Origin: Escherichia coli phage KS_S14
DNA: 64,000 bases
Sequence record: LC788706.1
Direction: 5' to 3' (one strand)
The notes beneath the pieces were generated by a model. The model saw only the letters and a list, made by a program, of their open reading frames with translations. It did not search any database and was not told where the DNA came from. Below are positions 1 through 34,977 of this stretch, piece by piece. Made by a program: the position numbers and the translations under genes. Every line of letters begins with the position of its first letter. Within the stretch, counting starts at the first letter, position 1.

Positions 1-170
1 CTTTTGACGGTGATCACATTCCACTAGAACAATTATCCTGTGATTACATGATATTGAAGAACTTTGACGAGACAAAGATCTCAAGCGTTTATAATCGACA
101 GAATCCATTAACGTGGAAATATAAGAAGAAAAAGAAAGGCATCAAATTCTTAAAAAATGTAGTTGCTTAG
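1..170 (+). CDS. hypothetical protein, 3' fragment (gene starts upstream of window)
   Basis: Open frame from window edge to TAG at 168-170; Lys-rich C-terminus. Confidence 0.3.
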   Translation, partial: FDGDHIPLEQLSCDYMILKNFDETKISSVYNRQNPLTWKYKKKKKGIKFLKNVVA

Positions 171-219
171 TTTCCAAAAGTTCTATATAATAATTACATA
201 AATTGAACTGGAGAAGCTA

Positions 220-411
220 ATGAAACGATTAGTTAGATTTAAGTGTTGTGGTTCTGAGCATATTTTTACACATCTTCGTGAATTTAAAATGTGTGATTGT
301 GGTAAATCAGGCTATGACGCAGGGGACGGGTTCTATACACGTACTCTAGGGAACTTCAATGATTTAGAGTTTGAAGATCTCGAAAAACAAGATAAATCGA
401 CCGTTGGCTGA
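220..411 (+). CDS. small Cys-rich protein (possible zinc ribbon)
   Basis: 63 aa ORF with GGAG RBS upstream; CC..CDC motif; 3' end overlaps tRNA-Cys. Confidence 0.45.
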   Translation: MKRLVRFKCCGSEHIFTHLREFKMCDCGKSGYDAGDGFYTRTLGNFNDLEFEDLEKQDKSTVG

Positions 412-473
412 ATGGCTTAGGCGAAGGATTGCAAATCCTTTTTATGTGAGTTCAAATCTCATGCGGTCGTCCA
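398..473 (+). tRNA. tRNA-Cys (anticodon GCA)
   Basis: Hand fold: 7-bp acceptor cgaccgt/gcggtcg, anticodon stem aagga/tcctt with loop ttGCAaa, T-arm gtgag-ttcaaat-ctcat, encoded CCA. Confidence 0.65.
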
Positions 474-492
474 ATTTTTAAGGATATAAGTA

Positions 493-1011
493 GTGCACAA
501 AAAAGTCTTTGATAATTTACTAAAGAGAGGTTTTGTTACAATCGAACCCTTCTCTATAACCACAGAACTAATACAAAGATTTATGGAAGAGTATATAAAT
601 CTTACTGGTACTAGTGGGAATATTAAAAAGAACACAAATACTTTATACGCAAGAAAACTTGCAGCACTATCATTCATAAAGTTTAAGCAAGAAAATAAAC
701 TACCTATTTCTGAAGGTTTTGTATACTGTATTAGTAATCCTGCATGGAAAAATCAGTATAAAATAGGTATGAGTCAAAATCCAAAAGAGAGATTAGCTCA
801 ATATCAGACTTATTCCCCTTATAGGGATTATAAGTTAGAGCATTGGTCTTTTTGGTTTGACAAACGAAAAGGTGAAAAACTAATTCACCAGTATTTCAAA
901 GATTTAAAAGAACATGAGTGGTTTAGTATAAATTCTAGGGATCTTAGTAAATATCTAGAACGTATTAACTCTAGTTCTGACTTATATGGTTCCTTAGCTC
1001 TAATTGGTTAG
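493..1011 (+). CDS. T5orf172-family (GIY-YIG-like) protein, putative homing-endonuclease-like
   Basis: 172 aa; block EGFVY.I.NPAW...YKIGM...ERL..YQTYSPYRDYKL...EWF shared with paralog 2766..3239. Confidence 0.6.
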   Translation: MHKKVFDNLLKRGFVTIEPFSITTELIQRFMEEYINLTGTSGNIKKNTNTLYARKLAALSFIKFKQENKLPISEGFVYCISNPAWKNQYKIGMSQNPKERLAQYQTYSPYRDYKLEHWSFWFDKRKGEKLIHQYFKDLKEHEWFSINSRDLSKYLERINSSSDLYGSLALIG

Positions 1012-1065
1012 AGCGGCATCTTGTTAAGTTGAGGGTTGCTGGTTCGAATCCAGCAGGAACCGCCA
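988..1065 (+). tRNA. tRNA, probably Asn (anticodon GTT), anticodon stem imperfect
   Basis: Acceptor ggttcct/aggaacc, T-arm gctgg-ttcgaat-ccagc, CCA encoded; anticodon loop ttGTTaa with two stem mismatches. Confidence 0.5.
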
Positions 1066-1167
1066 AATTCTGTGTAGAGTTAAGTAAACCGGTAGCCAAC
1101 CAGCTATCATTGCTGACATCGAATTCAGCCACAGATACCATTTTCATTAATAACTGAGAAAACAAGC

Positions 1168-1353
1168 ATGTCCAAGAATGTAATTGCACAGTTAGAAGTT
1201 CATCGTGATAGCACTATCAACAATATTGAAGTTGAGAAGAAATACATCGAAGAACTTAAACATGATATACTAGTAAGTCTTAATCGTCTTAATGTACGAA
1301 AAGAGTTTCTTAAAGAACTTAATGCAGCTATTGAGAAACTCAAAGCTGAATAA
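1168..1353 (+). CDS. hypothetical small coiled-coil protein
   Basis: 61 aa ORF between two tRNA genes; weak RBS. Confidence 0.35.
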   Translation: MSKNVIAQLEVHRDSTINNIEVEKKYIEELKHDILVSLNRLNVRKEFLKELNAAIEKLKAE

Positions 1354-1362
1354 ACAGATCAT

Positions 1363-1439
1363 GCGACCGGGGCTGGCTTGGTAATGGTACTCCCCTGTCA
1401 CGGGAGAGAATGTGGGTTCGAATCCCATCGGTCGCGCCA
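1363..1439 (+). tRNA. tRNA-Asp (anticodon GTC)
   Basis: Acceptor gcgaccg/cggtcgc, anticodon stem ctccc/gggag with loop ctGTCac, T-arm gtggg-ttcgaat-cccat, CCA. Confidence 0.7.
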
Positions 1440-1465
1440 AACTAAACTAGCACGAGAAATATGCT

Positions 1466-1813
1466 ATGATTAATGCTAAAGAAGAATTGTTACTTGCCCT
1501 AAAGAATACTAATTCTGAAGTTAAGTGTATTAAGATAGAATTCGGTTATTATGGGGACAAAGAAGTTTGGGTATTACCCGTAGGTTATACAGAAAAAGAT
1601 ATTGAAGATTTTCTAAATAATCTAGACTTTAAATATGATTCTGGTTTCGGCGGACAATTGCTTTATGGTAACGTATGGTTTACTGATGGAACTTGGTTAG
1701 AACGTGGTGAATATGATGGTTCTGAATGGTGGGAGTACAAGACTACACCAGCAATCCCTGAAGAATGCCGAACAATTAATGGTGAAGTAGATAATACTTT
1801 ACGATTAAACTAA
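1466..1813 (+). CDS. hypothetical protein
   Basis: 115 aa ORF, protein-like composition, no recognised motif. Confidence 0.45.
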   Translation: MINAKEELLLALKNTNSEVKCIKIEFGYYGDKEVWVLPVGYTEKDIEDFLNNLDFKYDSGFGGQLLYGNVWFTDGTWLERGEYDGSEWWEYKTTPAIPEECRTINGEVDNTLRLN

Positions 1814-1935
1814 TAAAATTTCAGTGCAGAACACGGAGCTAGCAATTCGGAAGTGCTGACTCATGATAAGCTGCCTATGTACTTGCGAAGCGGTCGTGTC
1901 CAAGACTCGGACTCTTGCACTGAAAACAATCAAAC

Positions 1936-2055
1936 ATTCTAGCGTGGTTGATGGGGAAACCAGCTTGGCGAGGGCAGAAGCTCGTTCGATTCGAGTGAAA
2001 GAATGGTTCTCGTAAGTCCGCACAAGTGATAACAGGTTCGAGTCCTGTCTAGAAT
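1936..2055 (+). ncRNA. tRNA-like structured RNA candidate with two T-arm-like hairpins
   Basis: 7-bp terminal pairing attctag/ctagaat encloses hairpins ctcg-ttcgatt-cgag and acagg-ttcgagt-cctgt; no canonical cloverleaf; lies in a 370-nt ORF-free gap. Confidence 0.3.
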
Positions 2056-2205
2056 GACACTATAAAGTTTACTTATTATGTAGGTTCCGATAGATCGGCG
2101 GGTCTATTCTGGCATTTAAGAGAGGTCTCGCAAACTTCTTTGTCAGCCGTGGGGTTCATAGCCTCCAGGTGGCCTACACAATAAGTAAATTTATTAAAAA
2201 TTCAT

Positions 2206-2234
2206 TTGCTATTCTGCTTAATTATCCGTATAAT
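2206..2234 (+). promoter_or_regulatory. sigma70-type early promoter (TTGCTA-17-TATAAT)
   Basis: Consensus -35/-10 with 17-bp spacer and AT-rich upstream. Confidence 0.6.
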
Positions 2235-2266
2235 ATATTTTATAAAGTGAAGAGAAGGAAAGCAAA

Positions 2267-2425
2267 ATGAAACACAAGATAGCTCAAGTTTTTATGGCAT
2301 TATGGTGTATGCCAATAGCTATAACAGCATTTAATCTAGATACTTTTACTATAGAAGAAAAATGTATCGGATTAGTTAGCGGCTTTAGTATGCTGGGCTT
2401 ATCTTTGTTGTGGTTGAAGAAATAA
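2267..2425 (+). CDS. small membrane protein (52 aa)
   Basis: ATG 33 nt after promoter -10 with GAAGGA RBS; hydrophobic; below ORF-track cutoff. Confidence 0.35.
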   Translation: MKHKIAQVFMALWCMPIAITAFNLDTFTIEEKCIGLVSGFSMLGLSLLWLKK

Positions 2426-2429
2426 TATT

Positions 2430-2507
2430 CTCCGTGTAGCTCAGTTTGGCCAGAGCGTTTCGTTTGGGGCGATAGGGTCGGGGGTTCAAATCCTCCCACG
2501 GAGACCA
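2430..2507 (+). tRNA. tRNA-Pro (anticodon TGG)
   Basis: Acceptor ctccgtg/cacggag, anticodon loop ttTGGgg, T-arm ggggg-ttcaaat-cctcc, CCA. Confidence 0.55.
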
Positions 2508-2513
2508 AACAAT

Positions 2514-2591
2514 TGCGGGTTAGATCTCTGGTAGAGATCGCTAGTCTCATAAGCTAGAAAGAGGTAGGTTCGATTCCTGCACCCGCTTCCA
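2514..2591 (+). tRNA. tRNA with CAT anticodon (Met or Ile2)
   Basis: Anticodon stem ctagt/gctag with loop ctCATaa, T-arm gtagg-ttcgatt-cctgc, CCA; 1-72 mismatch. Confidence 0.5.
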
Positions 2592-2611
2592 TTTTAATAG
2601 AGGATTTCGAA

Positions 2612-2776
2612 ATGAAAGTATTTCGATTAGTAGTAAGTGACAAACGGTCAGGTAAGAATACATCAAAATCCTTACTTGCCCATTATGGTAAAAATTGGGA
2701 TGAAGTAATGGCAGAGTTTAATACTAATCACCCTTACTTGAAAGTTCACTCTATTAAGGAAGTTTATGCTTATTAA
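2612..2776 (+). CDS. small hypothetical protein (54 aa)
   Basis: ATG with GAGGA RBS; stop overlaps start of next gene. Confidence 0.35.
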   Translation: MKVFRLVVSDKRSGKNTSKSLLAHYGKNWDEVMAEFNTNHPYLKVHSIKEVYAY

Positions 2777-3239
2777 CAGGGTGCTTCAAGCTCTAGATCT
2801 TCCAGAGCTCTTTACTATTACCGACCCCTTAATACATCGGTATATGGAAAAGTATAATGAAATCTCTGGTAAAAAAGGGAAACTAAAATCCTCAGAATTT
2901 AAGTTCTGTTATAGAATGGCAGCATTAAACCTCTTAAAGTACAAGAGGGAGCATAAAATCCCTATAACAGAAGGATTTGTCTATGTAATAGGTAATCCAG
3001 CATGGCCTGGACTATATAAGATAGGTATGACAGTAGATGTGAATGAAAGACTGTCTAGTTATCAAACATATTCGCCTTATCGTGATTACAAGTTATACCA
3101 TTTCAGATTCTCCTCGGACAAGAGAAGAACTGAAAAAGCATTACATAACCTTCTGAAGGACTACAAAGTATCAGGAGAATGGTTTGAAGTACCTCTGTTA
3201 GACGCCTTCAAACTATTAGTAGAAAATTTGGATTGCTAA
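2766..3239 (+). CDS. T5orf172-family (GIY-YIG-like) protein, paralog of 493..1011
   Basis: 157 aa; shares N- and C-terminal blocks with 493..1011; 3' end overlaps tRNA-Lys. Confidence 0.6.
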   Translation: MLINRVLQALDLPELFTITDPLIHRYMEKYNEISGKKGKLKSSEFKFCYRMAALNLLKYKREHKIPITEGFVYVIGNPAWPGLYKIGMTVDVNERLSSYQTYSPYRDYKLYHFRFSSDKRRTEKALHNLLKDYKVSGEWFEVPLLDAFKLLVENLDC

Positions 3240-3307
3240 CTCAACTGGATAAGAGTACCGGACCTTTAATCCGTCAGTTCTGGGTTCGAATCCCAGGCAA
3301 TCCACCA
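3230..3307 (+). tRNA. tRNA-Lys (anticodon TTT), tentative
   Basis: Acceptor ggattgc/gcaatcc, T-arm ctggg-ttcgaat-cccag, CCA; anticodon loop ccTTTaa with C at position 33. Confidence 0.5.
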
Positions 3308-3325
3308 ATTTCAAGAAAAACTCAG

Positions 3326-3354
3326 TTGCTTGATGCTTAATTTCTTGTTATAAT
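3326..3354 (+). promoter_or_regulatory. sigma70-type early promoter (TTGCTT-17-TATAAT) driving a non-coding transcript
   Basis: Consensus hexamers followed by ATAAATTGATGAGGAGAG box. Confidence 0.6.
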
Positions 3355-3361
3355 ATTTATA

Positions 3362-3592
3362 TAAATTGATGAGGAGAGATCCTCATCATAGTTCACTAAG
3401 GTATTAGCTCGACCTAGGACTGGCTGCCAAAAAGCACGATCCCTACGATTCGGGAGAAGTTCTAGATTAGTCCACTAGATTCAGCGGCAACTGAATAGTG
3501 TATTGGGTTTGCGAGATGACGCAGTTCCTTCCGCTCGAAGCGAAGGTGCTGTAGTTACGCCGAGCTAATAGCCTTAGTAAACTAAAGAATTT
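3362..3592 (+). ncRNA. promoter-driven structured RNA candidate upstream of tRNA-Ala
   Basis: Starts with perfect 7-bp hairpin gatgagg/cctcatc after the promoter; no ORF with RBS; further hairpins; ends at tRNA-Ala. Confidence 0.35.
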
Positions 3593-3671
3593 GGGGAATG
3601 GGTCTGCATGGAGTGGACACCTCGCTTGCACCGAGGACATCAGAACGGTTCGATTCCGTTATTCTCCACCA
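3593..3671 (+). tRNA. tRNA-Ala (anticodon TGC)
   Basis: Acceptor ggggaat/attctcc, anticodon stem cctcg/cgagg with loop ctTGCac, T-arm aacgg-ttcgatt-ccgtt, CCA. Confidence 0.6.
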
Positions 3672-3676
3672 AATAC

Positions 3677-3753
3677 GCGTGATTGATGGAATTGGCATAC
3701 ATACCGTCCTTAGAAGTCGGGTTTTGAGGGTTCGAATCCCTTGTCACGCACCA
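3677..3753 (+). tRNA. tRNA with TAG anticodon (Leu-type) but short variable region, atypical
   Basis: Acceptor gcgtgat/gtcacgc, T-arm gaggg-ttcgaat-ccctt, CCA; anticodon loop ctTAGaa; irregular D region. Confidence 0.45.
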
Positions 3754-3878
3754 AATTTGATGGTCAGAGTAAATTAAACCTACTATCTCGGTTGAGCTGT
3801 TTTAATGGGTTCGAATCCCAGCGAGGCGTAACTGCCTGGTGTGATAGAGGCATCATTCCACTAACATTGGAAAAACTA

Positions 3879-4109
3879 ATGAAACGAAAATTAAAAAAGT
3901 CTTATATAATTAAGATAAATAAGCTACGAAGTAGGGCAAAAGGATGGCCACTTCGAATATTAATTGCGGATAACCATACTAGATACCATGCGGAACAACG
4001 TCATTACAAACAGTGGGAGTCATACTGCCGCTCAAAAGCAGGTCGTTTAGATGGATCTTATGAGTTTCTATTTGGTAAGAAGCCTACTAGAGTAGCTTTA
4101 GGTAATTAG
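3879..4109 (+). CDS. small basic protein (76 aa)
   Basis: In-frame ATG inside ORF-track entry 3741..4109, whose upstream part is tRNA-like sequence; Lys/Arg-rich. Confidence 0.35.
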   Translation: MKRKLKKSYIIKINKLRSRAKGWPLRILIADNHTRYHAEQRHYKQWESYCRSKAGRLDGSYEFLFGKKPTRVALGN

Positions 4110-4114
4110 TACTT

Positions 4115-4205
4115 GGAAGAGCAAATCGAATTGGCGACGAAAACCGCTTGGAAAGTGGCTGACTGGTAAAACGGCTTGAGAGTTCAAATCTCTCCTCTTC
4201 CGCCA
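4115..4205 (+). tRNA. tRNA-Ser (anticodon GGA), class II
   Basis: Acceptor ggaagag/ctcttcc, anticodon loop ttGGAaa, long variable arm, T-arm gagag-ttcaaat-ctctc, CCA. Confidence 0.55.
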
Positions 4206-4217
4206 AACAATTTATAT

Positions 4218-4312
4218 GGTAGGTCAATCCAACGGCTGGCGCTGGACTCCGACTTGAAATCGGTTGATCGTAGTGATACGGTGTAAGGGTTCGATCCCCT
4301 TACCTACCTCCA
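4218..4312 (+). tRNA. tRNA-Ser (anticodon TGA), class II
   Basis: Acceptor ggtaggt/acctacc, anticodon loop ctTGAaa, long variable arm, T-arm aaggg-ttcgatc-ccctt, CCA. Confidence 0.55.
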
Positions 4313-4315
4313 AAT

Positions 4316-4451
4316 CTTGGAATATGCCGGAATTGGTAGACGGGACTGCCGAATAGGTTTACTAGGAACATCCACTCCTAGAAATATACCTTAAAAGCGG
4401 TTGAGTTAAATGGTCTAACTCATGAAGGTTCAAGCCCTTCTATTCCTTGAT
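4316..4451 (+). ncRNA. unresolved tRNA-like element (possibly class II tRNA with insertion)
   Basis: Leu-like D-loop gaattggtagac, hairpins ctagg/cctag and gagtta/taactc, perfect T-arm gaagg-ttcaagc-ccttc, no CCA; cloverleaf not resolved by hand. Confidence 0.3.
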
Positions 4452-4562
4452 ACATCAATGGCTCAAAGTGTAACGGTGCTATTTGATGCTCTTGGAAAGA
4501 CTTTCCCGACATGCGTTCGGGGGTAAGCTTCTGAGGCTAGAATAGAAGAGTTTCTGAGAGCC

Positions 4563-4682
4563 GCCACAATTGAAAATTCGTACTCGTCTTGAGCTGCGTG
4601 CAATAGGAGATAACTTGATTAGTATTCTAGAACATGCTAATTGAGGATGGTTTCGCTAACCCTGCGAGTTTTCAATTGTGGC
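4563..4682 (+). ncRNA. long-range stem structure (14-bp perfect inverted repeat) abutting tRNA-His
   Basis: gccacaattgaaaa at 4563-4576 pairs with ttttcaattgtggc at 4669-4682, enclosing about 90 nt; 3' arm overlaps tRNA-His 5' end. Confidence 0.3.
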
Positions 4683-4754
4683 TATATCATAATTGGTTAA
4701 TGATCCTGATTGTGAATCAGGCCTATGTGGATTCGAATTCCACTAGCCACCCCC
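4678..4754 (+). tRNA. tRNA-His (anticodon GTG)
   Basis: Acceptor gtggcta/tagccac, anticodon stem cctga/tcagg with loop ttGTGaa, T-arm gtgga-ttcgaat-tccac. Confidence 0.65.
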
Positions 4755-4780
4755 AAATTAACTTAAATAGGAAATAAAAT

Positions 4781-4981
4781 ATGGCTGATTTCTGCAAACA
4801 ATGCTCCATTGATATGTGGGGTAGAGATACTGGCGACTTATCTGGTCTGATTACAGAAGCCGAAGTCAAAGAAGGTTATGGTGCAGTTGTGGTTTGCGAA
4901 GGATGCGGAGTCATTCGAGTAGATCATGAAGGTAAGCGCCTTGAAGAACCTGAGCCAACCGCAATGGTTCCTGTAGAGTGA
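4781..4981 (+). CDS. small CxxC protein (zinc-ribbon-like)
   Basis: 66 aa; CKQC and CEGCG motifs; RBS present. Confidence 0.45.
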   Translation: MADFCKQCSIDMWGRDTGDLSGLITEAEVKEGYGAVVVCEGCGVIRVDHEGKRLEEPEPTAMVPVE

Positions 4982-4982
4982 A

Positions 4983-5564
4983 ATGAAATTAGAGAATTTT
5001 AAAGTAATCCCAGAATATCCAGAATACTTAATCTCTCCATATGGAGAGGTTTACTCTACTAAGAGTAATAAACTACTTACACATCATTTAGGCAGTGCAG
5101 GATACCCGTTTGTAACGTTCTATGAACAGGGTAAGAATGTTTCTGTTGTATTGCATAGATTATTGGCTAGAGTATTTAAAGATTTACCTTCGCTAGAATC
5201 TGAACTAGAGGTGGATCACAAAGATAGGAATAAATTGAACTTTACCCTAGATAATCTAGTTGTCATGACCAAGGAAGATCACAGAGTAAAAACTACACTT
5301 GAAAGAGGGCATACAGTAGGTGGTAGTAAATGTCCTTATTGTAATAAACAAATAAATTCTTCATCTAAAACTTGTTTTGATTGTAAACCTAAGAGTAGCC
5401 CTGATATTACAGCAGAGCAAATAGAATATTGGGTAATAAACTATTCATGGGTTAAAGCATCAAAAGAGCTGGGACTATCTGATAATGGTCTACGTAAACG
5501 TTATAAATCCTTAACAGGTAAAGATCCAAAAAGTATTAAGAAGAAGGTTAGCCAAGTCGGTTAA
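4983..5564 (+). CDS. HNH homing endonuclease
   Basis: 193 aa; EVDHKDRNKLNFTLDNL HNH motif and C-terminal CxxC..CxxC; 3' end overlaps tRNA-Gln. Confidence 0.65.
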   Translation: MKLENFKVIPEYPEYLISPYGEVYSTKSNKLLTHHLGSAGYPFVTFYEQGKNVSVVLHRLLARVFKDLPSLESELEVDHKDRNKLNFTLDNLVVMTKEDHRVKTTLERGHTVGGSKCPYCNKQINSSSKTCFDCKPKSSPDITAEQIEYWVINYSWVKASKELGLSDNGLRKRYKSLTGKDPKSIKKKVSQVG

Positions 5565-13357: not shown

Positions 13358-13367
13358 GTAATTTTAA

Positions 13368-24884: not shown

Positions 24885-25070
24885 TGAATGCGAATGATAA
24901 TGAGAATAATTATCATTTAAGAAGTGGAATGCAAATGATAATTATTCTCATTTACGAAAGGGGGGTGAGAACTATTCAGGAAGTGAAACGATTCTCATTT
25001 AAAAAGTGAAATGATTATCGGTTAGACAGTGGAATGCGAATGATAATGATTCTCATTTAAGAATGGAAGT
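24885..25070. repeat. cluster of about 60-bp direct repeats each containing AATGAGAAT/ATTCTCATT palindromes
   Basis: ggaatgc(g/a)aatgataat three times; attctcattta four times; long AT-rich inverted repeats. Confidence 0.6.
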
Positions 25071-25198: not shown

Positions 25199-25393
25199 TA
25201 TTCCTATGTAGTGAATAATTCTAATATAGGCCTAAAACGTCCTGAATCGCATTCTAACGCGTTTAATTTTGGTGGGGATACTAAAACAAGGGCAAAATTG
25301 GAGGAGGCTTGAAAATTAGTTAGCACGCTAACGATCACACAAGGCGACACGTAACACCCTAATCATTAGCAGGCTAACCATCGCGGGCGCGGT

Positions 25394-25416
25394 CAAATGA
25401 GAATGATTCTCATTTG
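25394..25416. repeat. 23-bp perfect palindrome CAAATGAGAATGATTCTCATTTG
   Basis: Perfect dyad; same core as the 24885-25070 repeats. Confidence 0.55.
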
Positions 25417-25566
25417 AAAATTGGGGGCACTCCCTGATAGTTGCGCCCCTTGATTATTATAGTAGTGGGCAACCGTTACGCTTTGCCCACTCCCCCCACT
25501 CATCTTGATGCCTAGACTTGCGACGGCGTACTAAAAACCGTTTATACCAGTGATTAAACCATCGTT

Positions 25567-26551: not shown

Positions 26552-26752
26552 TTTTATTCTCCTTTACCAGTCATGCAGCCCAGCAGATAAGAAAAAACGG
26601 CAATGCCAGCGCCGATAATAACAGCGTGAACGCCGAAAGCTATTGCAAATAACGATAAGATAGCGCCCAAGATACCCGCCAGAATAGCTCGAAAAATAAC
26701 CATTTGTAATACTCCCCTAGTTATCGGGGGATATAATATCCCCCGTTATTAA

Positions 26753-27089: not shown

Positions 27090-27584
27090 TTAAACTACTT
27101 GTAATGTTTCAATATTGAAACATCGTTTCAATTCGTCATGCAAAACAGCATATTCCTCCCATCGGGTACTATCAGGAATATAAACAAGCTGTTTTAATCG
27201 GTTTGCATATATTACCGCTTTGTTATCGACTATCTCGACGCCACCATATTTAATAATTAATTTCATGACGGAATTAATAGGATCACCGCCGTTTACATAT
27301 GTGCCGGATTTACTTAGTTGATAATGATAAAGGCTTGCATATACGTTTTCATTCTCATACCATTCACCAGTTTCTTCGTCTTCGTAACCATCGCTACCAA
27401 AACGAGAAGCATTATCAATAGCCATTTCATGAGCGAAAGCGTCCAGATCCGTACCAGCAGGAACAAAATATTCCTCGGTGTTCCCTTCCCCGCAATAGCC
27501 AGTATGACAATCAACTAAAATGATCATATCATGTTTAGCCGTGCTCACTTCCCCTAGTGAGAAGCCGTATTTTTCTTCAGCCAT
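27090..27584 (-). CDS. hypothetical acidic protein
   Basis: 164 aa ORF with GGAGG RBS. Confidence 0.5.
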   Translation of the reverse strand: MAEEKYGFSLGEVSTAKHDMIILVDCHTGYCGEGNTEEYFVPAGTDLDAFAHEMAIDNASRFGSDGYEDEETGEWYENENVYASLYHYQLSKSGTYVNGGDPINSVMKLIIKYGGVEIVDNKAVIYANRLKQLVYIPDSTRWEEYAVLHDELKRCFNIETLQVV

Positions 27585-27649
27585 TAGTTAGCCTCCTATT
27601 AGTTAACAAGGGAATAGTAAAGTGGGGAAACAATCCCCACTAAATATTA

Positions 27650-28966: not shown

Positions 28967-29361
28967 TGCAAAAGTCCTTATATCGCCGCCTATCGTGTCA
29001 AGTTATTTCGTGCTGTGGATAACGTTGTGGATAACCTAAATGATAGTGCTTCTCACTTAGCTAGATGATTTCTTATAGTTATTATTTCTCATTAATTTAT
29101 ATGTATATTATATATCATGAAATAGTTAGTTAGCTAATGAGATTTTTCGTGATTAATAGTCTGCTAATAGTTTACTCGGTTACAGTCCACCAGCATGATT
29201 ATCATCCTAGCAATTATTATCCTGCTATCTTTCCGATGCATACTAACAAATAAAAGTCAATTAATTTATTTCATAAAATAAGTAGTTATCCACTGGAAAA
29301 TAAAAGTCAAGTGGATAACTAGGAAAATTTCATTTTTGCTTTTGGGGATAAGTTATCAACA
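28953..29361. promoter_or_regulatory. DnaA-box cluster in divergent control region
   Basis: TGTGGATAA at 28953, 29024, 29036; TTATCCAC at 29286; GTGGATAAC at 29311; TTATCAACA at 29353. Confidence 0.5.
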
Positions 29362-29766
29362 AGGCTAGAATGCACCTAAAACGCCCTAGAACGCGATGAA
29401 AGTTTTAGCCATGCCATTGCATTGCCTACCCTCGTTTATCGCTACCACGAGCTTTTTAGTTTTTGTCAAGTAGGGCAAGGCAAATATAAATGAAAAAATT
29501 ACTTGCCAACCTGCTGGGTTTTATGGTATTCGCGCGCCCGTTTCTTTTAATTTTAGGCCGTCGCCGCACGCCGTCCGGTGAGTTTTTGTCTTTACATTTC
29601 TTTACAAAAATAAGGTTGCGCCATTTTCGGGAATCCCCTATTATTTATCTCGTAGGGCGGCAATGACGAACTACACGGCGGGAAGTTTACCGCCACGCTC
29701 TTTAAAAATTGGGTACATCTTAAAGCCTATCGGCGGTAAACTTATACATTATAAGGAATCGACGAT

Positions 29767-29970
29767 ATGAAACAAACTTTATTGATCACTGGCAAGCCTA
29801 TTAAGGCACTAGATAGCAAAACAAAAAAATTGTTGACAGTAGCGCAAAGATCGGTAAAATACCGATTCACGCAGTACAAGAAAGGCCGCCAGCAAGGTTT
29901 AGAAATGATCTGGCGAAATATTATGATTGACTTGAAAGAAAATCATAAAAAACTGCAAAAAATTGTTTGA
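29767..29970 (+). CDS. hypothetical basic protein
   Basis: 67 aa; first ORF of + strand pre-early-like operon. Confidence 0.4.
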   Translation: MKQTLLITGKPIKALDSKTKKLLTVAQRSVKYRFTQYKKGRQQGLEMIWRNIMIDLKENHKKLQKIV

Positions 29971-30136
29971 CAATCTAGCCGATAGGTTTTAAGATGTACT
30001 CAGTTCGATAAGAGCGATAACTTGATAAAATTTGACGGTCGGTGCTTACCATAATGCATCCCGCCCCCTAACTGGGATATAGCGGCCTACGTGGAGTTCT
30101 TTAAATTGGTTAAACTGGCGAGCGGATTGTTACTTA

Positions 30137-30164
30137 TTACCTGCTAGTATTTTCTAGCAGGTAA
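30137..30164 (+). promoter_or_regulatory. intercistronic palindrome ttacctgctag/ctagcaggtaa
   Basis: 11-bp perfect arms with 6-nt AT loop between genes. Confidence 0.4.
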
Positions 30165-30200
30165 TGCGGAACAATCCCCAAATAACTAGGAGTTTATATT

Positions 30201-30452
30201 ATGCAAAACGTTATTACCGCGCCTAAAATTGGTCAATCCGTCTTTATTCCTTTCGTTACTAAAACGGATGAATTAACCGGAAAAGCCGAACGCATTAAAG
30301 GTGCGGCGCTTATGCCGTTCGATACAATCGACGCGGTATACGCTGAAACGGAACGCAGTAACAACGGCAAACCAGTTTTTAGCGTTCGCGTTAAATCCGG
30401 TGACGTTGTAAAGGTTGTTCAACGCAACGAAAAATGGGAAGCTGTTTTGTAA
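30201..30452 (+). CDS. hypothetical protein
   Basis: 83 aa ORF with AGGAG RBS. Confidence 0.45.
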   Translation: MQNVITAPKIGQSVFIPFVTKTDELTGKAERIKGAALMPFDTIDAVYAETERSNNGKPVFSVRVKSGDVVKVVQRNEKWEAVL

Positions 30453-30466
30453 TTTAGTGTTAACTT

Positions 30467-30494
30467 TATATTCCCCTGAAATATGGGGAATATA
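30467..30494 (+). promoter_or_regulatory. intercistronic palindrome tatattcccc/ggggaatata
   Basis: 10-bp perfect arms, 8-nt loop. Confidence 0.4.
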
Positions 30495-30553
30495 ACGATT
30501 AACATTAAGTTAATCATTAAATCCCTTAAATTAAACTAATAGGAGTTTTTACC

Positions 30554-30961
30554 ATGACTAACGCAAAAACCGCAAAATTCGCATGGAATGAAGAAAACAC
30601 TCAGAAAGCTGTTACCATGTATCAGCAGTTAATCAATGAAAACGGTTTAGATTTCGCAAATAGCGACGGTCTGAAAGAGATTGCGAAAGCAGTAGGCGCG
30701 GCCTCCCCCGTGTCAGTTCGCTCAAAATTGACCAGCGCGAAAGCATATCAAAAAAGCGATAAGCCGCGCAAAGTAGGCGGCGGTAGCTCTGTGCGTAAAG
30801 CTCATTATGTACGCGTTATCGCTAAACATGCTATTGATTCCGGCATTATCAAAGACGCCGACGATCTGGCAAGTCTGGAAAGTGCAAAACTTGAAACGCT
30901 GGACGCAGTAGCGCAACTGTTAGGCGTTGCCGATGAAGTAAAACAAGCCGCAGGCGAATAA
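30554..30961 (+). CDS. pre-early protein, possibly A2-like
   Basis: 135 aa; immediately upstream of the A1-like gene; assignment by position and size only. Confidence 0.35.
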   Translation: MTNAKTAKFAWNEENTQKAVTMYQQLINENGLDFANSDGLKEIAKAVGAASPVSVRSKLTSAKAYQKSDKPRKVGGGSSVRKAHYVRVIAKHAIDSGIIKDADDLASLESAKLETLDAVAQLLGVADEVKQAAGE

Positions 30962-30962
30962 T

Positions 30963-31006
30963 AGTTATATCTTGCCCCCTTTTAGTGAGGGGGCAATAAT
31001 ATAACT
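30963..31006 (+). promoter_or_regulatory. intercistronic GC-cored palindrome
   Basis: ttatatcttgccccc...gggggcaataatataa imperfect inverted repeat. Confidence 0.4.
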
Positions 31007-31051
31007 GTTTAGCGATAGTTATTTTCTTCCCTTAAATCAGGAGTTTTAAAA

Positions 31052-31249
31052 ATGGTTTTCTTCCCTACTGAATCATTAATTCTAGGCTTGTTTATTATGG
31101 CGGCCTCGTTATTGTTCGCTTATTTTCAAAATGATTTAGACTCATATTATTTTAAGCGTAAGTCTAAATTGGCAAAGCGTTTAGGTCTGATTTGTTTTAT
31201 TGCCGCCGTTGCTTGTGGTGTTAGTTCTAGCCTGATGCCTTTAAATTAA
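31052..31249 (+). CDS. small membrane protein
   Basis: 65 aa, two hydrophobic helices. Confidence 0.4.
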   Translation: MVFFPTESLILGLFIMAASLLFAYFQNDLDSYYFKRKSKLAKRLGLICFIAAVACGVSSSLMPLN

Positions 31250-31260
31250 TGTTGCAAATT

Positions 31261-31286
31261 ATAACGCCTATTATTCGAGGCGTTAT
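31261..31286 (+). promoter_or_regulatory. intercistronic palindrome ataacgcct/aggcgttat
   Basis: 9-bp arms, 8-nt loop. Confidence 0.4.
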
Positions 31287-31339
31287 ATTTGGCAATATTG
31301 CCGTTATTAATCTAATCCCTTTAATGGAGTTTTATTACT

Positions 31340-33010
31340 ATGATTATTTCCGCAGAAAAACAAACCGTTATCCTGAAAATGGCCGCTGACTTTAATTTCT
31401 ATGGTAAACGTCTGCGCGCTACTAAACTGGAAGTCTGCGACGATATATCAAAAGCGGTCTACGATACTACTAAACACTCCACCGCTATCTGCGACTGGCT
31501 GGAAGCAAATAAACCAGCTAAACCGAAAGCTGCAAAAGTAGCAAAAGCCATTAAAAACGATGAGCGCCCAGAAGCGGCGGGAATTGTTTCTAGTACGGTT
31601 GAGCAATGGGAAGTAAAACAGGGTAAACGCTTTATTATTACGTCGATTCAGAATAATACTTTCCCGCATAAAAACTTTTTGTCCTCGCTTGAACAATACG
31701 CTAAATATATCGGCGCTGATTTGCTTGTTTCTAAGTATATTTATAATAAAAACGGCTTCCAGAATGGAGAAGGTGCAGACGGTATCAAATACGATCCCGC
31801 ATTTGATAAATATATTTGCAGCAAAAACGTGTTTTTAAATAACCGCCGCTTTGCTTTCATGGCTGAAATTAATGTTTTGCCCACCGCAGATTATCCGCTT
31901 TCAGGATTCGCAGAAACTGCAACGGCTTTAAATATTGAAGGGCTGGCAATTGGTCATGCTAAAATTACCGCCGAAAGCGTGCCAGCTCTCAAAGGTGAGG
32001 TAGTGCGCCGCATGTATTCAACCGGAACGGCGACGTTAAAAAACTATATCCAGCAAAAAGCAGGGCAAAAAGCCGAGGCGCTGCATAACTTCGGCGCGCT
32101 GATTGTTGAGTTCGACGAGGACGGGGAATTTTTTGTTCGCCAGCTTGAAACAATGGATGAAAGCGGGGTGTTTTATGATCTGAACGTTTGCGCTACTCCT
32201 GCCGGATGTTATGAAACATCGGGACATGTTTTAGGCTTGCAATATGGCGACATCCACGCAGAAAAATTAGATGAGGAGTGCGCCGCCGCATCTTGGGGGC
32301 ATGGTGACACCTACGGGCTTGTGGATATTCTTAAACCAAAATATCAATTCGTCCATGACGTGCATGATTTTACATCACGCAACCATCACAACCGCGCATC
32401 CGGTGTATTCCTAGCAAAACAATACGCCGCCGGACGTGATAAGGTATTAGATGATCTTATCGATACGGGGCGCGTATTGGAATCAATGGAGCGCGATTTT
32501 TCTCAAACGATCATCGTAGAATCAAACCATGATTTAGCTTTATCCCGTTGGCTGGATGATCGTAACGCCAACATTAAAGACGACCCTGCAAACGCGGAAC
32601 TATATCACCGCCTGAATGCCGCTATTTACGCCGCAATCGGTGAGCATGATGAAACGTTTAACGTGCTTGATTATGCGCTGCGCAAAGTTGCAGGTTGTGA
32701 GTTTAACGCCATTTTCCTAACGACTGACCAGTCTTTCAAGATTGCAGGCATTGAATGCGGCGTACACGGTCACAATGGCATTAACGGCAGCCGTGGCAAT
32801 CCTAAACAATTTAAGAAATTGGGCAAGTTAAACACGGGGCATACGCATACCGCCAGCATTTACGGCGGTGTATATACCGCTGGCGTGACTGGTAGTCTGG
32901 ACATGGGTTACAACGTTGGCGCGTCTAGCTGGACTCAAACGCATATTATTACCTATGCAAACGGTCAACGCACTTTGATTGACTTTAAGAATGGTAAATT
33001 CTTTGCGTAA
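31340..33010 (+). CDS. A1: A1-like pre-early protein, calcineurin-like metallophosphoesterase (putative nuclease)
   Basis: 556 aa, the size recalled for T5 A1; motifs GDIHAEK, HDVHD, ESNHD, GHNGINGSRGN, GHTHT. Confidence 0.6.
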   Translation: MIISAEKQTVILKMAADFNFYGKRLRATKLEVCDDISKAVYDTTKHSTAICDWLEANKPAKPKAAKVAKAIKNDERPEAAGIVSSTVEQWEVKQGKRFIITSIQNNTFPHKNFLSSLEQYAKYIGADLLVSKYIYNKNGFQNGEGADGIKYDPAFDKYICSKNVFLNNRRFAFMAEINVLPTADYPLSGFAETATALNIEGLAIGHAKITAESVPALKGEVVRRMYSTGTATLKNYIQQKAGQKAEALHNFGALIVEFDEDGEFFVRQLETMDESGVFYDLNVCATPAGCYETSGHVLGLQYGDIHAEKLDEECAAASWGHGDTYGLVDILKPKYQFVHDVHDFTSRNHHNRASGVFLAKQYAAGRDKVLDDLIDTGRVLESMERDFSQTIIVESNHDLALSRWLDDRNANIKDDPANAELYHRLNAAIYAAIGEHDETFNVLDYALRKVAGCEFNAIFLTTDQSFKIAGIECGVHGHNGINGSRGNPKQFKKLGKLNTGHTHTASIYGGVYTAGVTGSLDMGYNVGASSWTQTHIITYANGQRTLIDFKNGKFFA

Positions 33011-33024
33011 TTAAATTATTCCCC

Positions 33025-33048
33025 TAGCGGCTTGAAATATAGCCGCTA
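33025..33048 (+). promoter_or_regulatory. intercistronic palindrome tagcggct/agccgcta
   Basis: 8-bp arms, 8-nt loop tgaaatat. Confidence 0.4.
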
Positions 33049-33064
33049 TTACAGGAGTCAAAAA

Positions 33065-33322
33065 ATGAAAGTTATTCTACCCAAAACACTAGACGAAAAA
33101 GCATTTATTTCCCCCGATGAAATGGAATCAAATAAAGTTTACAGCTTCGGGCCTATCCTAGCCGTCAAAACTGATACGGATGGCATTATTTCCATTGATT
33201 ATCGTGATAATGATGTTGTTCCTTTTGATGACGATAGCGCTTTTTATGAGTGGTTAAGCGATAATAATTTACCCGTAAATGGTGAATTAACGCCGTATCA
33301 AATGCAGATTATTATCAAATAA
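33065..33322 (+). CDS. hypothetical protein
   Basis: Start at second ATG with AGGAG RBS. Confidence 0.4.
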   Translation: MKVILPKTLDEKAFISPDEMESNKVYSFGPILAVKTDTDGIISIDYRDNDVVPFDDDSAFYEWLSDNNLPVNGELTPYQMQIIIK

Positions 33323-33360
33323 TTTAAATCCTTTATTAAACTAACTGGAGTTTTATAAAT

Positions 33361-33753
33361 ATGAAAAAGCAAAATATTCCATTCGATCGCGCTCAGTCTT
33401 CTATTGTTCTGGTTTATTCTAATGGTGAACGTTACCACGTCGAGGCGGGGCACGTTATTGATGATCTATTAGATTTCAATGACGCTTTACAGGTTACTAC
33501 CTTTGCCTATACGCAAGGCCGCGCAAGTAGTTACATTAAGGCCGCAGGCGTTTATGTTGATACGGTGAAACAAGAAACGATTATCATCGACGCCGTAAAA
33601 TCCGGTCTAGCCTTTGCGGTTGTCGCGCCTTGCCCCGCTTGCCTTGATGATCAATTGATTTCTGCAAAAGTATATACTTGTGCTGGGATTCGTTCCCATG
33701 TATCAGGTGAGGATGTTAGTTTTATTGCCGATGCGTTGGCTTATGGTCTTTAA
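33361..33753 (+). CDS. hypothetical protein
   Basis: 130 aa ORF with GGAG RBS. Confidence 0.45.
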   Translation: MKKQNIPFDRAQSSIVLVYSNGERYHVEAGHVIDDLLDFNDALQVTTFAYTQGRASSYIKAAGVYVDTVKQETIIIDAVKSGLAFAVVAPCPACLDDQLISAKVYTCAGIRSHVSGEDVSFIADALAYGL

Positions 33754-33766
33754 TAGTTGATTTATT

Positions 33767-33793
33767 ATTGCCCGCTGATAAATAGCGGGCAAT
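33767..33793 (+). promoter_or_regulatory. intercistronic palindrome attgcccgct/agcgggcaat
   Basis: 10-bp arms, 7-nt loop. Confidence 0.4.
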
Positions 33794-33832
33794 GCTGGAT
33801 AAACTAAATCCCTTTAATGGAGAACGTAACAA

Positions 33833-34567
33833 ATGAATAAAGCTATTATGAATATTTCCCGCAGCTTCCCGCATATTTCCCGCGTCATGATTTGGGATTT
33901 AGACGGCACTATCATTAATTCTTTCCACCGCGTAGCGCCTTGCTTTGATAGCGAGGGCAATTTAGATTTAAATAAGTATAAAAATGAAGCGTGTAAACAT
34001 CATTTAATAATGCAGGATACATTATTACCATTAGTTGAATACATGCGCCAGTGCATGAACGACGCAAATACTTTAAACATTATTTGTACCGCTCGACTAA
34101 TGAGCAAGTCGGACTATTATTATTTGCGTAAACAAGGGTTGCGCGGTCGTGGGGATAGTAATATCCGCGTTTTTTCCCGTGATACACTACACAAATATTT
34201 TGAGGCTGATAAAGTTAGCGAGATATACCACAGTAAGGACGCAGTTTATAAATCTTATTATTTTGAATTATTTAAACAGTTATATCCGAACGCTGATTTT
34301 ACAATGATTGATGATCATAAAGGTGTATTATCAGCGGCGGCATCATACGGATTTAAAACGCTGGACGCGCAAGCCGTTAACGATATTCTATCAATCGGCG
34401 TGGCATTAATAGGTGAAACCTTTATTGATGAATCCCTCGATGATGATAATGATTATCAATTCCTAGCCGACCGTTTAAAATTATGTTGGGAAGGTATGAC
34501 CGAGGAAGAACGCGCAGAATATAGTTGCAGCCCGCAACAATATATTGAGAAATTAAAAGTTGCGTAA
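33833..34567 (+). CDS. dmp: HAD-superfamily 5'-deoxyribonucleotidase (Dmp-like)
   Basis: 244 aa; N-terminal IWDLDGTI (DxDGT HAD motif); size recalled for T5 Dmp. Confidence 0.55.
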   Translation: MNKAIMNISRSFPHISRVMIWDLDGTIINSFHRVAPCFDSEGNLDLNKYKNEACKHHLIMQDTLLPLVEYMRQCMNDANTLNIICTARLMSKSDYYYLRKQGLRGRGDSNIRVFSRDTLHKYFEADKVSEIYHSKDAVYKSYYFELFKQLYPNADFTMIDDHKGVLSAAASYGFKTLDAQAVNDILSIGVALIGETFIDESLDDDNDYQFLADRLKLCWEGMTEEERAEYSCSPQQYIEKLKVA

Positions 34568-34584
34568 TAATTAAAGTTGAAACT

Positions 34585-34621
34585 GTTTCATCCTGTAATT
34601 AAAATGGTTGCAGGATGAAAC
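34585..34621 (+). promoter_or_regulatory. palindrome gtttcatcctg/caggatgaaac after last operon gene
   Basis: 11-bp arms; possible bidirectional terminator between convergent units. Confidence 0.4.
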
Positions 34622-34731
34622 AATTACCCTGCTAATAGTAACGGGAGTGGCGGTTAGCAGACTAAGTATTCTCCCCCAACCCACTGGGCACACCTCCATG
34701 TGTAATCTTATGAAATTTGGCAAAAGTCAAA

Positions 34732-34977
34732 TTAGCGCATAGAAGGGTCATCAAACCTGTATTCTGGTCTGAACTCACGGAATCTCTTCCGCGACGCCCG
34801 AGATCCATCCGACCACTCCCGCTCAAACTCCGCACGTTTCTCGTCAAACTTCCGCTCCCTTTCCGCAATCTCCCTCGTCACTCCCGCAATATATTTACGA
34901 TGCTTATTGATTGCCGCAGTCGTCCCGAAAACTCCCGCGAGTATCCCGATAATAAAAGCAATTATAATACTAAACAT
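34732..34977 (-). CDS. small membrane protein with charged C-terminal tail
   Basis: 81 aa; N-terminal TM helix; last gene of overlapping minus-strand cluster. Confidence 0.4.
   Translation of the reverse strand: MFSIIIAFIIGILAGVFGTTAAINKHRKYIAGVTREIAERERKFDEKRAEFEREWSDGSRASRKRFREFRPEYRFDDPSMR

Follow-up and report, generated by a model that had tools for sequence, protein, structure and literature searches.

When examining the intergenic regions of a 64,000-nucleotide (nt) stretch of DNA from Escherichia coli phage KS_S14 (sequence record LC788706.1; this whole stretch is hereinafter the window), we found that the pre-early operon of this T5-like phage, at positions 29767-34621 of the + strand, is punctuated by stable RNA stem-loops in six of its seven internal gaps and at its 3' end. 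The operon has the gene order hdi-007-A2-005-A1-variable gene (003 slot)-002-dmp and adjoins the left end of the genome, inside the terminal repeat. The stem-loops, denoted here H1 to H7 in the order of transcription, recur at the same junctions in relatives in which their sequences have changed, in part beyond recognition, and several features of this variation favor the sense RNA strand over the DNA as the molecule in which the structure matters. We assign a probability of about 0.5 to the interpretation that they are intercistronic stem-loops of the sense mRNA with a role as barriers to decay or as sites of processing. The less expected part of the finding is a leader motif, nearly specific to pre-early genes, that follows most of the stem-loops and abuts the Shine-Dalgarno sequences.

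Stem-loops at the gene junctions

An earlier note on this DNA, made by a model from the letters alone, had listed seven palindromes in this operon and placed one in every intergenic gap. A scan for perfect arms recovered all seven, at 30136-30165 (12 base pairs, bp), 30466-30495 (11 bp), 30972-30996 (9 bp), 31260-31287 (10 bp), 33025-33048 (8 bp), 33767-33793 (10 bp) and 34584-34622 (18 bp, including G.U pairs). When folded as RNA, the seven hairpins have predicted free energies of -13.7 to -32.7 kcal/mol and are more stable than dinucleotide shuffles of the same sequences, with z-scores of -3.0 to -7.9. The rule that every gap holds such an element, by contrast, has to be relaxed because the gap at 33323-33360 is free of hairpins (z -0.4 to -1.0), which leaves six of the seven internal gaps and the 3' end of the operon.

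Five of the hairpins reach imperfect stems of ~17-26 bp and share a two-tier build, in which an uninterrupted, GC-rich upper stem of 10-13 bp is separated by an internal loop or bulge of 1-3 nt from an AU-rich lower stem of 7-15 bp; in H2, H3, H4 and H6, the lower stem begins at the stop codon itself. In particular, H1 (30124-30177, + strand, as are all the elements described in this section unless stated otherwise; -32.7 kcal/mol, z -6.6) consists of an upper stem of 12-13 bp, a small internal loop and a lower stem of 7 bp, the 3' arm of which includes AATCC, and H2 (30450-30512; -28.8 kcal/mol, z -7.9) combines an 11 bp upper stem with an AU-rich lower stem of ~15 bp. The next two structures are H3 (30960-31009; -30 kcal/mol, z -5.8) and H4 (31247-31300; -23.5 kcal/mol, z -5.0), the latter overlapped on its 3' side by a small GGCAATATTGCC hairpin. 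H5 (33025-33048; -13.7 kcal/mol, z -3.0) is a stem of 8 bp with the loop TGAAATAT, H6 occupies 33754-33806 (-27.2 kcal/mol, z -5.3), and H7 (34584-34622), the last structure of the operon, folds into a stem of 18 bp located ~68 nt before the genome physically ends. The median total helix is 21-25 bp at H1, H2, H4 and H6, 17.5 bp at H7, 8 bp at H5 and 9-10 bp in an alternative form of H3 that is described below.

Hairpins of this stability are enriched in the operon gaps relative to the rest of the window. In a gap-by-gap table of z-scores, built on rough open reading frame (ORF) calls over the whole window, six of the seven operon gaps have a z-score of -3 or below, compared with 8 of 31 other co-directional gaps (hypergeometric p ~0.006). 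This enrichment, together with the z-scores of the individual hairpins against shuffles, bears out the view of the earlier note that the regularity is not due to chance. A local-fold scan of the whole window at -14 kcal/mol turned out to be too noisy, and the perfect-arm scan and the gap z-scores were used instead. No covariance model of Rfam 15 matched at E <= 1 on either strand over 29300-34900.

The comparative set consisted of 40 T5-like loci from IMG/VR, among them Pectobacterium phage My1 and the metagenomic locus L038, to which the distant loci of Klebsiella phage Roth39, Proteus phage 1, Vibrio phage Chester and Aeromonas phage AhSzw-1 were added. Each hairpin is represented among the relatives by 12-25 distinct variants, and the base pairs are maintained by compensatory substitutions, as is generic for conserved structured RNAs, although template switching can mimic this pattern. 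In H2, four pairs have changed on both sides, one pair is seen as U-A, C-G, G-C and A-U, and 99% of the alignment cells are paired compared with 40-55% in slid controls. Similarly, 7 of the 19 pairs of H6 and 8 of the 16 pairs of H7 are compensatory. Taken over H2, H6 and H7, 91-99% of the cells are paired as opposed to 26-55% in controls with the 3' partners displaced by 1-3 columns, and the covariation score was matched by none of 500 shuffles. The 23 variants of H1 also include compensatory changes, along with an inversion of the loop (CTTTC<->GAAAG), a loop inversion is seen in H6 as well (GATAAAT<->ATTTATC), and the stem variants of H4 include CGCCT/AGGCG and CGCTG/CGGCG/CAGCG.

Moreover, entire hairpins have been exchanged. 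H3 is swapped in approximately half of the relatives for an unrelated hairpin of 9-10 bp, TAGTGGGGA-ATAT-TCCCCACTA, and none of the genomes examined lacks a hairpin at the junction after A1, where at least four unrelated stems are found, whichever gene comes next. The occurrence of unrelated hairpins at the same junction, together with loops that are free to vary, implies that the selected property is the stem-loop and not its sequence, which argues against both a common operator and a factor that reads the loop. The loops of H1, H2 and H6 (30148-30153, 30477-30484 and 33777-33783) occur among the relatives (L007, L012, L031 and others of the set) as exact or near-exact reverse complements, the inverted pairs being CTTTC/GAAAG, TGAAATAT/TTATTTCA and GATAAAT/ATTTATC. 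We read these inversions as the signature of palindrome-mediated inversion or template switching.

The hairpins also extend to distant relatives, where they fill most of the equivalent gaps in Roth39 (73% identity of A1), My1 and L038 (66-68%), Proteus phage 1 (42%), and Vibrio phage Chester and Aeromonas phage AhSzw-1 (~34%); a homologue of H4 is kept in Roth39. The earlier note had staked its proposal on relatives having these hairpins, and we found them kept across T5-like and distant relatives alike. In Vibrio phage Chester (locus L062), an identical 36-nt palindrome, TTTACAGTGTAAATTTAAACAAGTTTACACTGTAAA, is present in two consecutive pre-early gaps, at 3480-3520 and 3935-3975, beside GC-rich hairpins; this palindrome looks like an operator, unlike the stems of the T5 group.

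The two strands are not equivalent with respect to these structures. At six of the seven sites, folding of the sense strand gives a more stable structure than folding of the antisense strand, with a difference, averaged over all variants, of 1.5-5 kcal/mol (5 kcal/mol at H7). Among the non-Watson-Crick positions of the consensus structures, G.U occupies 234 cells in 39 columns compared with 45 cells in 20 columns for A.C (binomial p 0.018 by columns), so that the tolerance of G.U is specific to the sense strand. The G.U bias and the greater stability of the sense fold point to a structure of the sense mRNA and not to a DNA operator, as evidence that is supportive rather than decisive.

The second element of the junctions is a leader, ATCCCTTWAA upstream of GGAG, that precedes six of the eight operon genes, as AATCCCCAAATAACTAGGAG at 30173-30192 (gene 007), AAATCCCTTAAATTAAACTAATAGGAG at 30519-30545 (A2), CTTCCCTTAAATCAGGAG at 31026-31043 (gene 005), TAATCCCTTTAATGGAG at 31313-31329 (A1), AAATCCTTTATTAAACTAACTGGAG at 33326-33350 (gene 002) and AAATCCCTTTAATGGAG at 33806-33822 (dmp). 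The earlier note had ascribed one initiation context to all eight genes; these six have it, hdi lacks the motif, and the gene at 33065 has only ATTCCCC before its hairpin. The exact sequence AATCCCTTWAA occurs three times in the window, each time in this operon, and the looser motif, found at 6/8 operon genes, precedes only 6/96 other genes, one of which belongs to the other pre-early operon. A gene of that operon, at 27090-27584 on the - strand, has the same TTCCCTT...GGAGG leader. The motif is nearly invariant in the 40 close relatives while the neighboring stems change, and in Roth39, My1, L038 and Proteus phage 1 it is present as TCCCTTTAA or ACCCTTAAAT upstream of GGAG. The predicted folds leave both the leader and the Shine-Dalgarno sequence after each hairpin single-stranded. 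A switch in which the G-rich 3' arms would pair with the downstream CCC motif was considered and rejected, because the motif is invariant while the arms change.

The slot between A1 and gene 002 (33011-33360) is a hot spot of gene cassettes, as seen when five loci of the comparative set (L005, L012, L016, L010 and L021) are aligned with the window. It contains the 85-amino-acid (aa) gene of the window type, a gene of the T5 type, an insert of ~560 nt, or nothing; in the ~560 nt insert, carried by L016, a hairpin of its own buries the Shine-Dalgarno sequence. The breakpoints of the slot lie at the A1 stop codon and H5 on one side and at the AAATCC of the leader motif on the other, so that the leader of gene 002 doubles as the variable cassette's breakpoint on the right-hand side. 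In L021, a tandem duplication of 124 nt has its junction within the 3' arm of H5.

Roles considered for the stem-loops

Under the interpretation that we favor, host RNA polymerase would start at the two strong hdi promoters and produce a polycistronic pre-early mRNA, which, on the left terminal repeat, would run off the end of the DNA ~123 nt past dmp. The stem-loops would form just after, and often from, the stop codons, without efficiently stopping the polymerase, and would serve as post-transcriptional barriers to 3'->5' exonucleases, with the five long two-tier stems (~17-26 bp) perhaps being used also as entry sites for RNase III. Each cistron or group of cistrons would thus end in a stable 3' hairpin and be stabilized independently, and ribosomes would have free access to the ATCCCTTWAA-GGAG leader of the following gene, which is unstructured. 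The feature that all versions of the hairpins have in common is a compact, GC-rich stem of 8-13 bp, as a 3'-exonuclease barrier requires, and the 3' end of a transcript that runs off ~123 nt after dmp would be protected only by H7 and by a second hairpin at 34629-34660. RNase III sites of the T7 early type call for a duplex of approximately two helical turns (~22-24 positions) around the cut, and the signature of RNase III in E. coli in vivo comprises 24 duplex positions (PMC6212723); judging by helix length, H1, H2, H4 and H6 reach it, and processing at these sites is plausible. The barrier or processing activity, the role of RNase III and that of the leader motif are all roles that we infer from the nucleotide sequences.

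Several observations weigh against this interpretation. The gap at 33323-33360 works without any hairpin, and RNase III is not the common denominator of the sites, because the stems of H5 (8 bp) and of the alternative H3 (9-10 bp) fall short of its classical substrates. Compensatory changes can also be produced by template switching at palindromes, and the loop inversions are evidence that it occurs here, so that covariation alone is no proof of selection on the RNA. The G.U bias might be in part mutational and linked to transcription (C->T on the non-template strand), and it is only moderately significant by columns. In addition, the junction hairpins of My1 (2887-2905) and Proteus phage 1 (6583-6610 and 3474-3492) pass a sense-strand test for a stem followed by a T-run, and L038 has hairpins followed by TTTATTTCTTTTT or TTTATTTTT. 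Finally, nothing on the ends or half-lives of pre-early T5 RNAs turned up in the searchable literature, so that any activity of the stem-loops is a deduction.

The U-tracts in My1, L038 and Proteus phage 1 keep alive, for this family of phages, the main rival explanation, namely, that the hairpins are leaky intrinsic terminators, the attenuators of the earlier note, each of which would remove part of the polymerases, so that expression would fall stepwise along the operon, beginning with hdi, 007 and A2 and ending with the toxic A1 and dmp. The toxicity of A1 would make lower distal expression sensible, H2 and H7 have been called terminators in automated or manual annotations, and the tail of H4 is partly U-rich (AUAUUUGG). 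For the window itself, we nevertheless consider leaky termination unlikely. When a terminator is defined as a GC-rich stem-loop directly followed by at least 5 T in 8 bases, a scan of the window returned none of the seven operon hairpins, whose tails have 0-3 T in the first 8 bases. Canonical terminators with T-runs are present in the window at 13366, 14591, 15871, 44522, 49525 and 53261; because the phage uses such terminators elsewhere, their absence from the operon looks deliberate. At four of the hairpins, the U-rich flank is the 5' one and the A-rich flank the 3' one, a polarity reversed relative to that of terminators. Furthermore, the only mapped promoters lie upstream of all the hairpins, and A1, described as essential in the accessible part of the T5 literature, lies beyond four of them, which makes efficient termination very improbable; A1 and dmp, the latter relevant for fitness, are located behind 4-7 hairpins. 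A search for internal promoters after the hairpins, prompted by the idea of promoter-early stem-loop (PeSL) elements and by a 'putative promoter' in AY692264, yielded no convincing -35/-10 pair and no site matching at least 9/12 positions before the start codons beyond chance-level matches. The attenuators of the earlier note are thus weakly supported, and some My1 and Proteus phage 1 counterparts do resemble terminators.

Other explanations put the leader or the DNA at the center. The hairpins could be translation insulators, each of which would lock the end of the upstream cistron and keep the next leader single-stranded as a standby site or platform for ribosomal protein S1, giving every gene an independent, strong ribosome-binding site. 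The distribution of the motif within the operon, its near-invariance among relatives next to variable stems and its presence in the Klebsiella, Proteus and My1 relatives would fit this scheme, as would the unpaired leaders and Shine-Dalgarno sequences and the lower stems that start at stop codons. Gene 002, however, has the motif without a hairpin, H7 has no downstream gene, and there is no covariation of the hairpin 3' arms with the motif that would indicate a switch, which makes insulation, on balance, improbable. It is very improbable that the elements work at the DNA level, as operator or cruciform sites for A2, A1 or a host factor or as joints of cassette recombination. They are palindromic, A2 is a DNA-binding protein, the breakpoints of the post-A1 hot spot lie at a hairpin and at the motif, the L021 duplication has its junction in an arm of H5, and Vibrio phage Chester repeats one palindrome in two gaps; against this, the seven stems have no sequence in common and are swapped for unrelated ones, G.U, which is a mismatch in a cruciform or in the antisense strand, is tolerated 5:1 over A.C, and the sense fold prevails at 6/7 sites. 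The operator sites proposed in the earlier note are not supported for the same reasons, the stems being unrelated, covarying and swapped, the loops inverted and G.U pairs favoring the sense RNA. As specific candidates, a shared operator or other repeated protein-binding palindrome was rejected because the stem differs from site to site and turns over among relatives, and an antitermination RNA of the lambda boxB or HK022 put type was rejected because the loops invert and vary among close relatives. We give least credence to the absence of any current function, in which case the hairpins would be decayed terminators or selfish palindromes that are kept symmetrical by template-switch correction. 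Loop inversions do show palindrome-driven mutation, and T5 mutants that lack many pre-early genes are viable, but junction hairpins persist, after full turnover of their sequence, across genera in which A1 identity is below 45%, the operon gaps are enriched for hairpins relative to other gaps, and the published T5 deletions, as far as the accessible part of their description goes, spared the last ten codons of genes and hence the hairpins.

Conceivably, but doubtfully, the stem-loop and the leader AUCCCUU(U/A)AA-GGAG belong together as one module that is common to the Demerecviridae and is perhaps read by a dedicated factor or used as a joint for cassette exchange. Such a module may, for example, be targeted when A1 is needed to shut off pre-early expression, or it may act as a translational enhancer peculiar to the phage or as a processing signal. 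If so, it would be the post-transcriptional counterpart of the T4 PeSL cassettes.

The operon, its products and the genome end

We identify the region as the leftward operon of pre-early (first-step-transfer) genes in a T5-like phage. The segment 29500-35000 of the window matches 465 phage records along its whole length at 88-93% identity; nearly all of them belong to T5-like phages of Salmonella or Escherichia, and the segment is collinear with T5, BB1 and other records. With respect to T5 (NC_005859), it is the reverse complement of nt 10-5240, within the left terminal repeat, the first-step-transfer DNA. The operon DNA is ~88% identical to that of T5, and the T5 annotation agrees gene for gene. 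The identification of a pre-early operon with A1 and Dmp in that note is thus correct, given the collinearity with T5, the T5 annotation and the PHROG matches.

The first gene, hdi (29767-29970, + strand, as are the other operon genes), is the homologue of T5.008 (Pfam DUF7416, phrog_4718), with the gene name taken from bioRxiv 10.64898/2026.04.02.716235. Both strong pre-early promoters are located within or abutting this gene. The sigma-70 promoter TTGACA-16-TAAAAT at 29833-29860 (+ strand; 11/12 consensus positions) corresponds in position to T5 P-H22, and TTGACA-17-TAAGAT at 29967-29995 (+ strand; 10/12) is, by the T5 annotation, the equivalent of P-D/E20. In the accessible part of the T5 literature, P-H22 and P-D/E20 are experimentally characterized promoters, and these two at hdi are the only ones known experimentally for the pre-early operon. 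The start region of P-D/E20 is followed by an untranslated leader of ~120 nt (30002-30123) that extends to H1.

The downstream genes are the homologue of gene 007 (30201-30452; 83 aa), identified by its ORF, the T5 annotation, and Pfam and PHROG searches; A2 (30554-30961; phrog_1725), annotated in T5 and encoding the DNA-binding protein; the homologue of gene 005 (31052-31249; phrog_4820), which encodes a small membrane protein according to the T5 annotation; A1 (31340-33010; 556 aa; phrog_1745, E 1e-245), the essential putative metallophosphatase or nuclease; the variable cassette gene in the T5.003 slot (33065-33322; 85 aa; phrog_8297), which has no hairpin after it; the homologue of gene 002 (33361-33753; phrog_4576); and dmp (33833-34567; 244 aa; phrog_415), the deoxynucleoside-5'-monophosphatase gene, supported by the T5 annotation and the DLDGT motif of its product. 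A 46-aa ORF at 31249-31389 (+ strand), which overlaps H4 and the A1 leader, is 'ORF005' of AY587007 and is missing from other T5 annotations; it is probably not a gene.

The motifs reported earlier for the two enzymes are present in the translations, the 556-aa protein containing GDIH, SNHD and GHTH and the 244-aa protein WDLDGT. Their description as A1-like and Dmp-like agrees with the motifs and the identity and is an understatement, because near-identity to the T5 proteins and membership in the respective PHROG families make them A1 and Dmp themselves. In A1, residues D304, H306, D340, N396, H397, H476, H501 and H503 are invariant across 18 homologues with 33-74% identity. When compared with the motif set DxH, GD, GNH(D/E), H and GHxH, this pattern fits the metallophosphoesterases, and the protein is called a 'putative metallo-phosphatase' in the literature. 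Searches for the folds of A1 and Dmp in Pfam, NCBIfam, and the PDB with phmmer and with profiles gave nothing significant; the DLDGT motif of Dmp is accompanied by a match to HAD_2 below the cutoff (E 0.094), and single-sequence AlphaFold models were unusable, with pLDDT of 40 for Dmp and 32 for A1. The assignment of A1 to the calcineurin-like fold and of Dmp to the HAD fold is accordingly a tentative one, derived only from motif conservation.

T5 alignments and contig ends place nt 1 of T5 at approximately position 34690 of the window, so that the operon is transcribed toward the physical end of the genome and stops ~123 nt short of it; the segment 34629-34690 (+ strand) comprises the second terminal hairpin (34629-34660), identified by folding, and the genome's left end. 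Beyond 34690, the window passes directly into the receptor-blocking/llp side of the unique region, which indicates that the terminal repeat is collapsed in this assembly. Near the genome end, My1, Vibrio phage Chester and Aeromonas phage AhSzw-1 keep the motif GGCGGTAATGAGACT(C/T)ATTCTCAT, the variant in the window being GGCGGTTAGCAGACTAAGTATTCTCC; it may be a terminase signal or an end-recognition signal. An ATGAGAA/TTCTCAT core in common with this terminal motif of the relatives is found in two repeats at a distance from the operon, a perfect inverted repeat of 20 bp, AATGAGAATAATTATCATTT, with a 14-nt spacer at 24899-24952 and a palindrome of 11 bp, TCAAATGAGAA/TTCTCATTTGA, at 25393-25417, both of which probably belong to the injection-stop/repeat region. 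GC-rich hairpins follow some genes of the second pre-early operon, on the - strand (T5.011-017 side), as well (27621-27641, 26725-26745 and 25464-25491), and two of them correspond to annotated T5 terminators.

Earlier annotation and comparison with known systems

Individual stem-loops of this set have been noticed before. In the T5 record AY587007, H6 is 'palindrome A', H3 is 'palindrome B' and H7 is a 'putative rho-independent terminator 69-105' on the opposite strand, and in the annotation of phage BB1, H2 is a terminator. The entries in AY587007 are isolated features without a function, and the pattern of one hairpin per gap, the covariation, the sense bias and the leader motif are new relative to the searchable annotations and papers. 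The accessible parts of the searchable T5 literature discuss the injection-stop repeats and the pre-early proteins and not the hairpins; the review by Davison (2015) lay outside the search.

T5 enters the cell in two steps, and for several minutes the pre-early operon is the only phage DNA in the cell, where A1, A2, Dmp and Hdi effect the takeover of the host. The near-universal junction hairpins and the pre-early leader provide concrete, mutable cis-elements for post-transcriptional control in T5. In the annotation of Demerecviridae, hairpins of this kind should not be taken for terminators by default, and deletions designed for T5 engineering should take them into account. If the stem-loops are simple decay barriers, the finding is an ordinary one.

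Perhaps the closest precedent is the set of RNase III sites in the early region of phage T7, R0.3, R0.5, R1, R1.1 and R1.3. There, too, an early operon transcribed by the host polymerase has a stem-loop in each intercistronic gap and no U-tract, and, when folded for comparison, the T7 sites display the same two-tier stem, in which a GC-rich upper part (9-13 bp) and an AU-rich lower part are separated by an internal loop. The T7 copies, however, are related in sequence (ACUCAAGGUC...GGCCUUUAUGAU), whereas the seven stems of the T5 group are unrelated; the T5-group stems are more fully paired and more stable (-23 to -33 kcal/mol, compared with -17 to -23 kcal/mol in T7), two positions in the T5 group are too short for RNase III, and the T5-group elements are known here from sequence alone.

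Intercistronic stem-loops that stabilize mRNA are found in bacterial operons, for example, the REP elements between malE and malF and the hairpins of the puf operon. Like these, the T5-group elements are stable, GC-rich stem-loops past the stop codons of a polycistronic mRNA, lack a terminator tail and are expected to block 3' exonucleases; unlike these, each is unique and encoded by a phage, is accompanied by a conserved downstream leader and does not belong to a dispersed repeat family. Rho-independent terminators resemble the elements in being GC-rich stem-loops that follow genes, and the equivalents in some relatives have U-tracts, but the hairpins of the window have none, show reversed polarity at four positions and have essential genes downstream.

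The PeSL cassettes, which Arbiol and colleagues are said to have described in T4-type phages in 2010, likewise combine a stem-loop with a short conserved sequence in the gaps between small early genes, and the breakpoints of cassette exchange lie at these elements. The conserved sequence described here differs in being a leader that abuts the Shine-Dalgarno sequence and not a promoter, with no -35/-10 match in the gaps. Set beside these systems, the stem-loops of the pre-early operon are best explained as elements of a familiar kind, intercistronic mRNA stem-loops, and the phenomenon is real, conserved and fairly ordinary.

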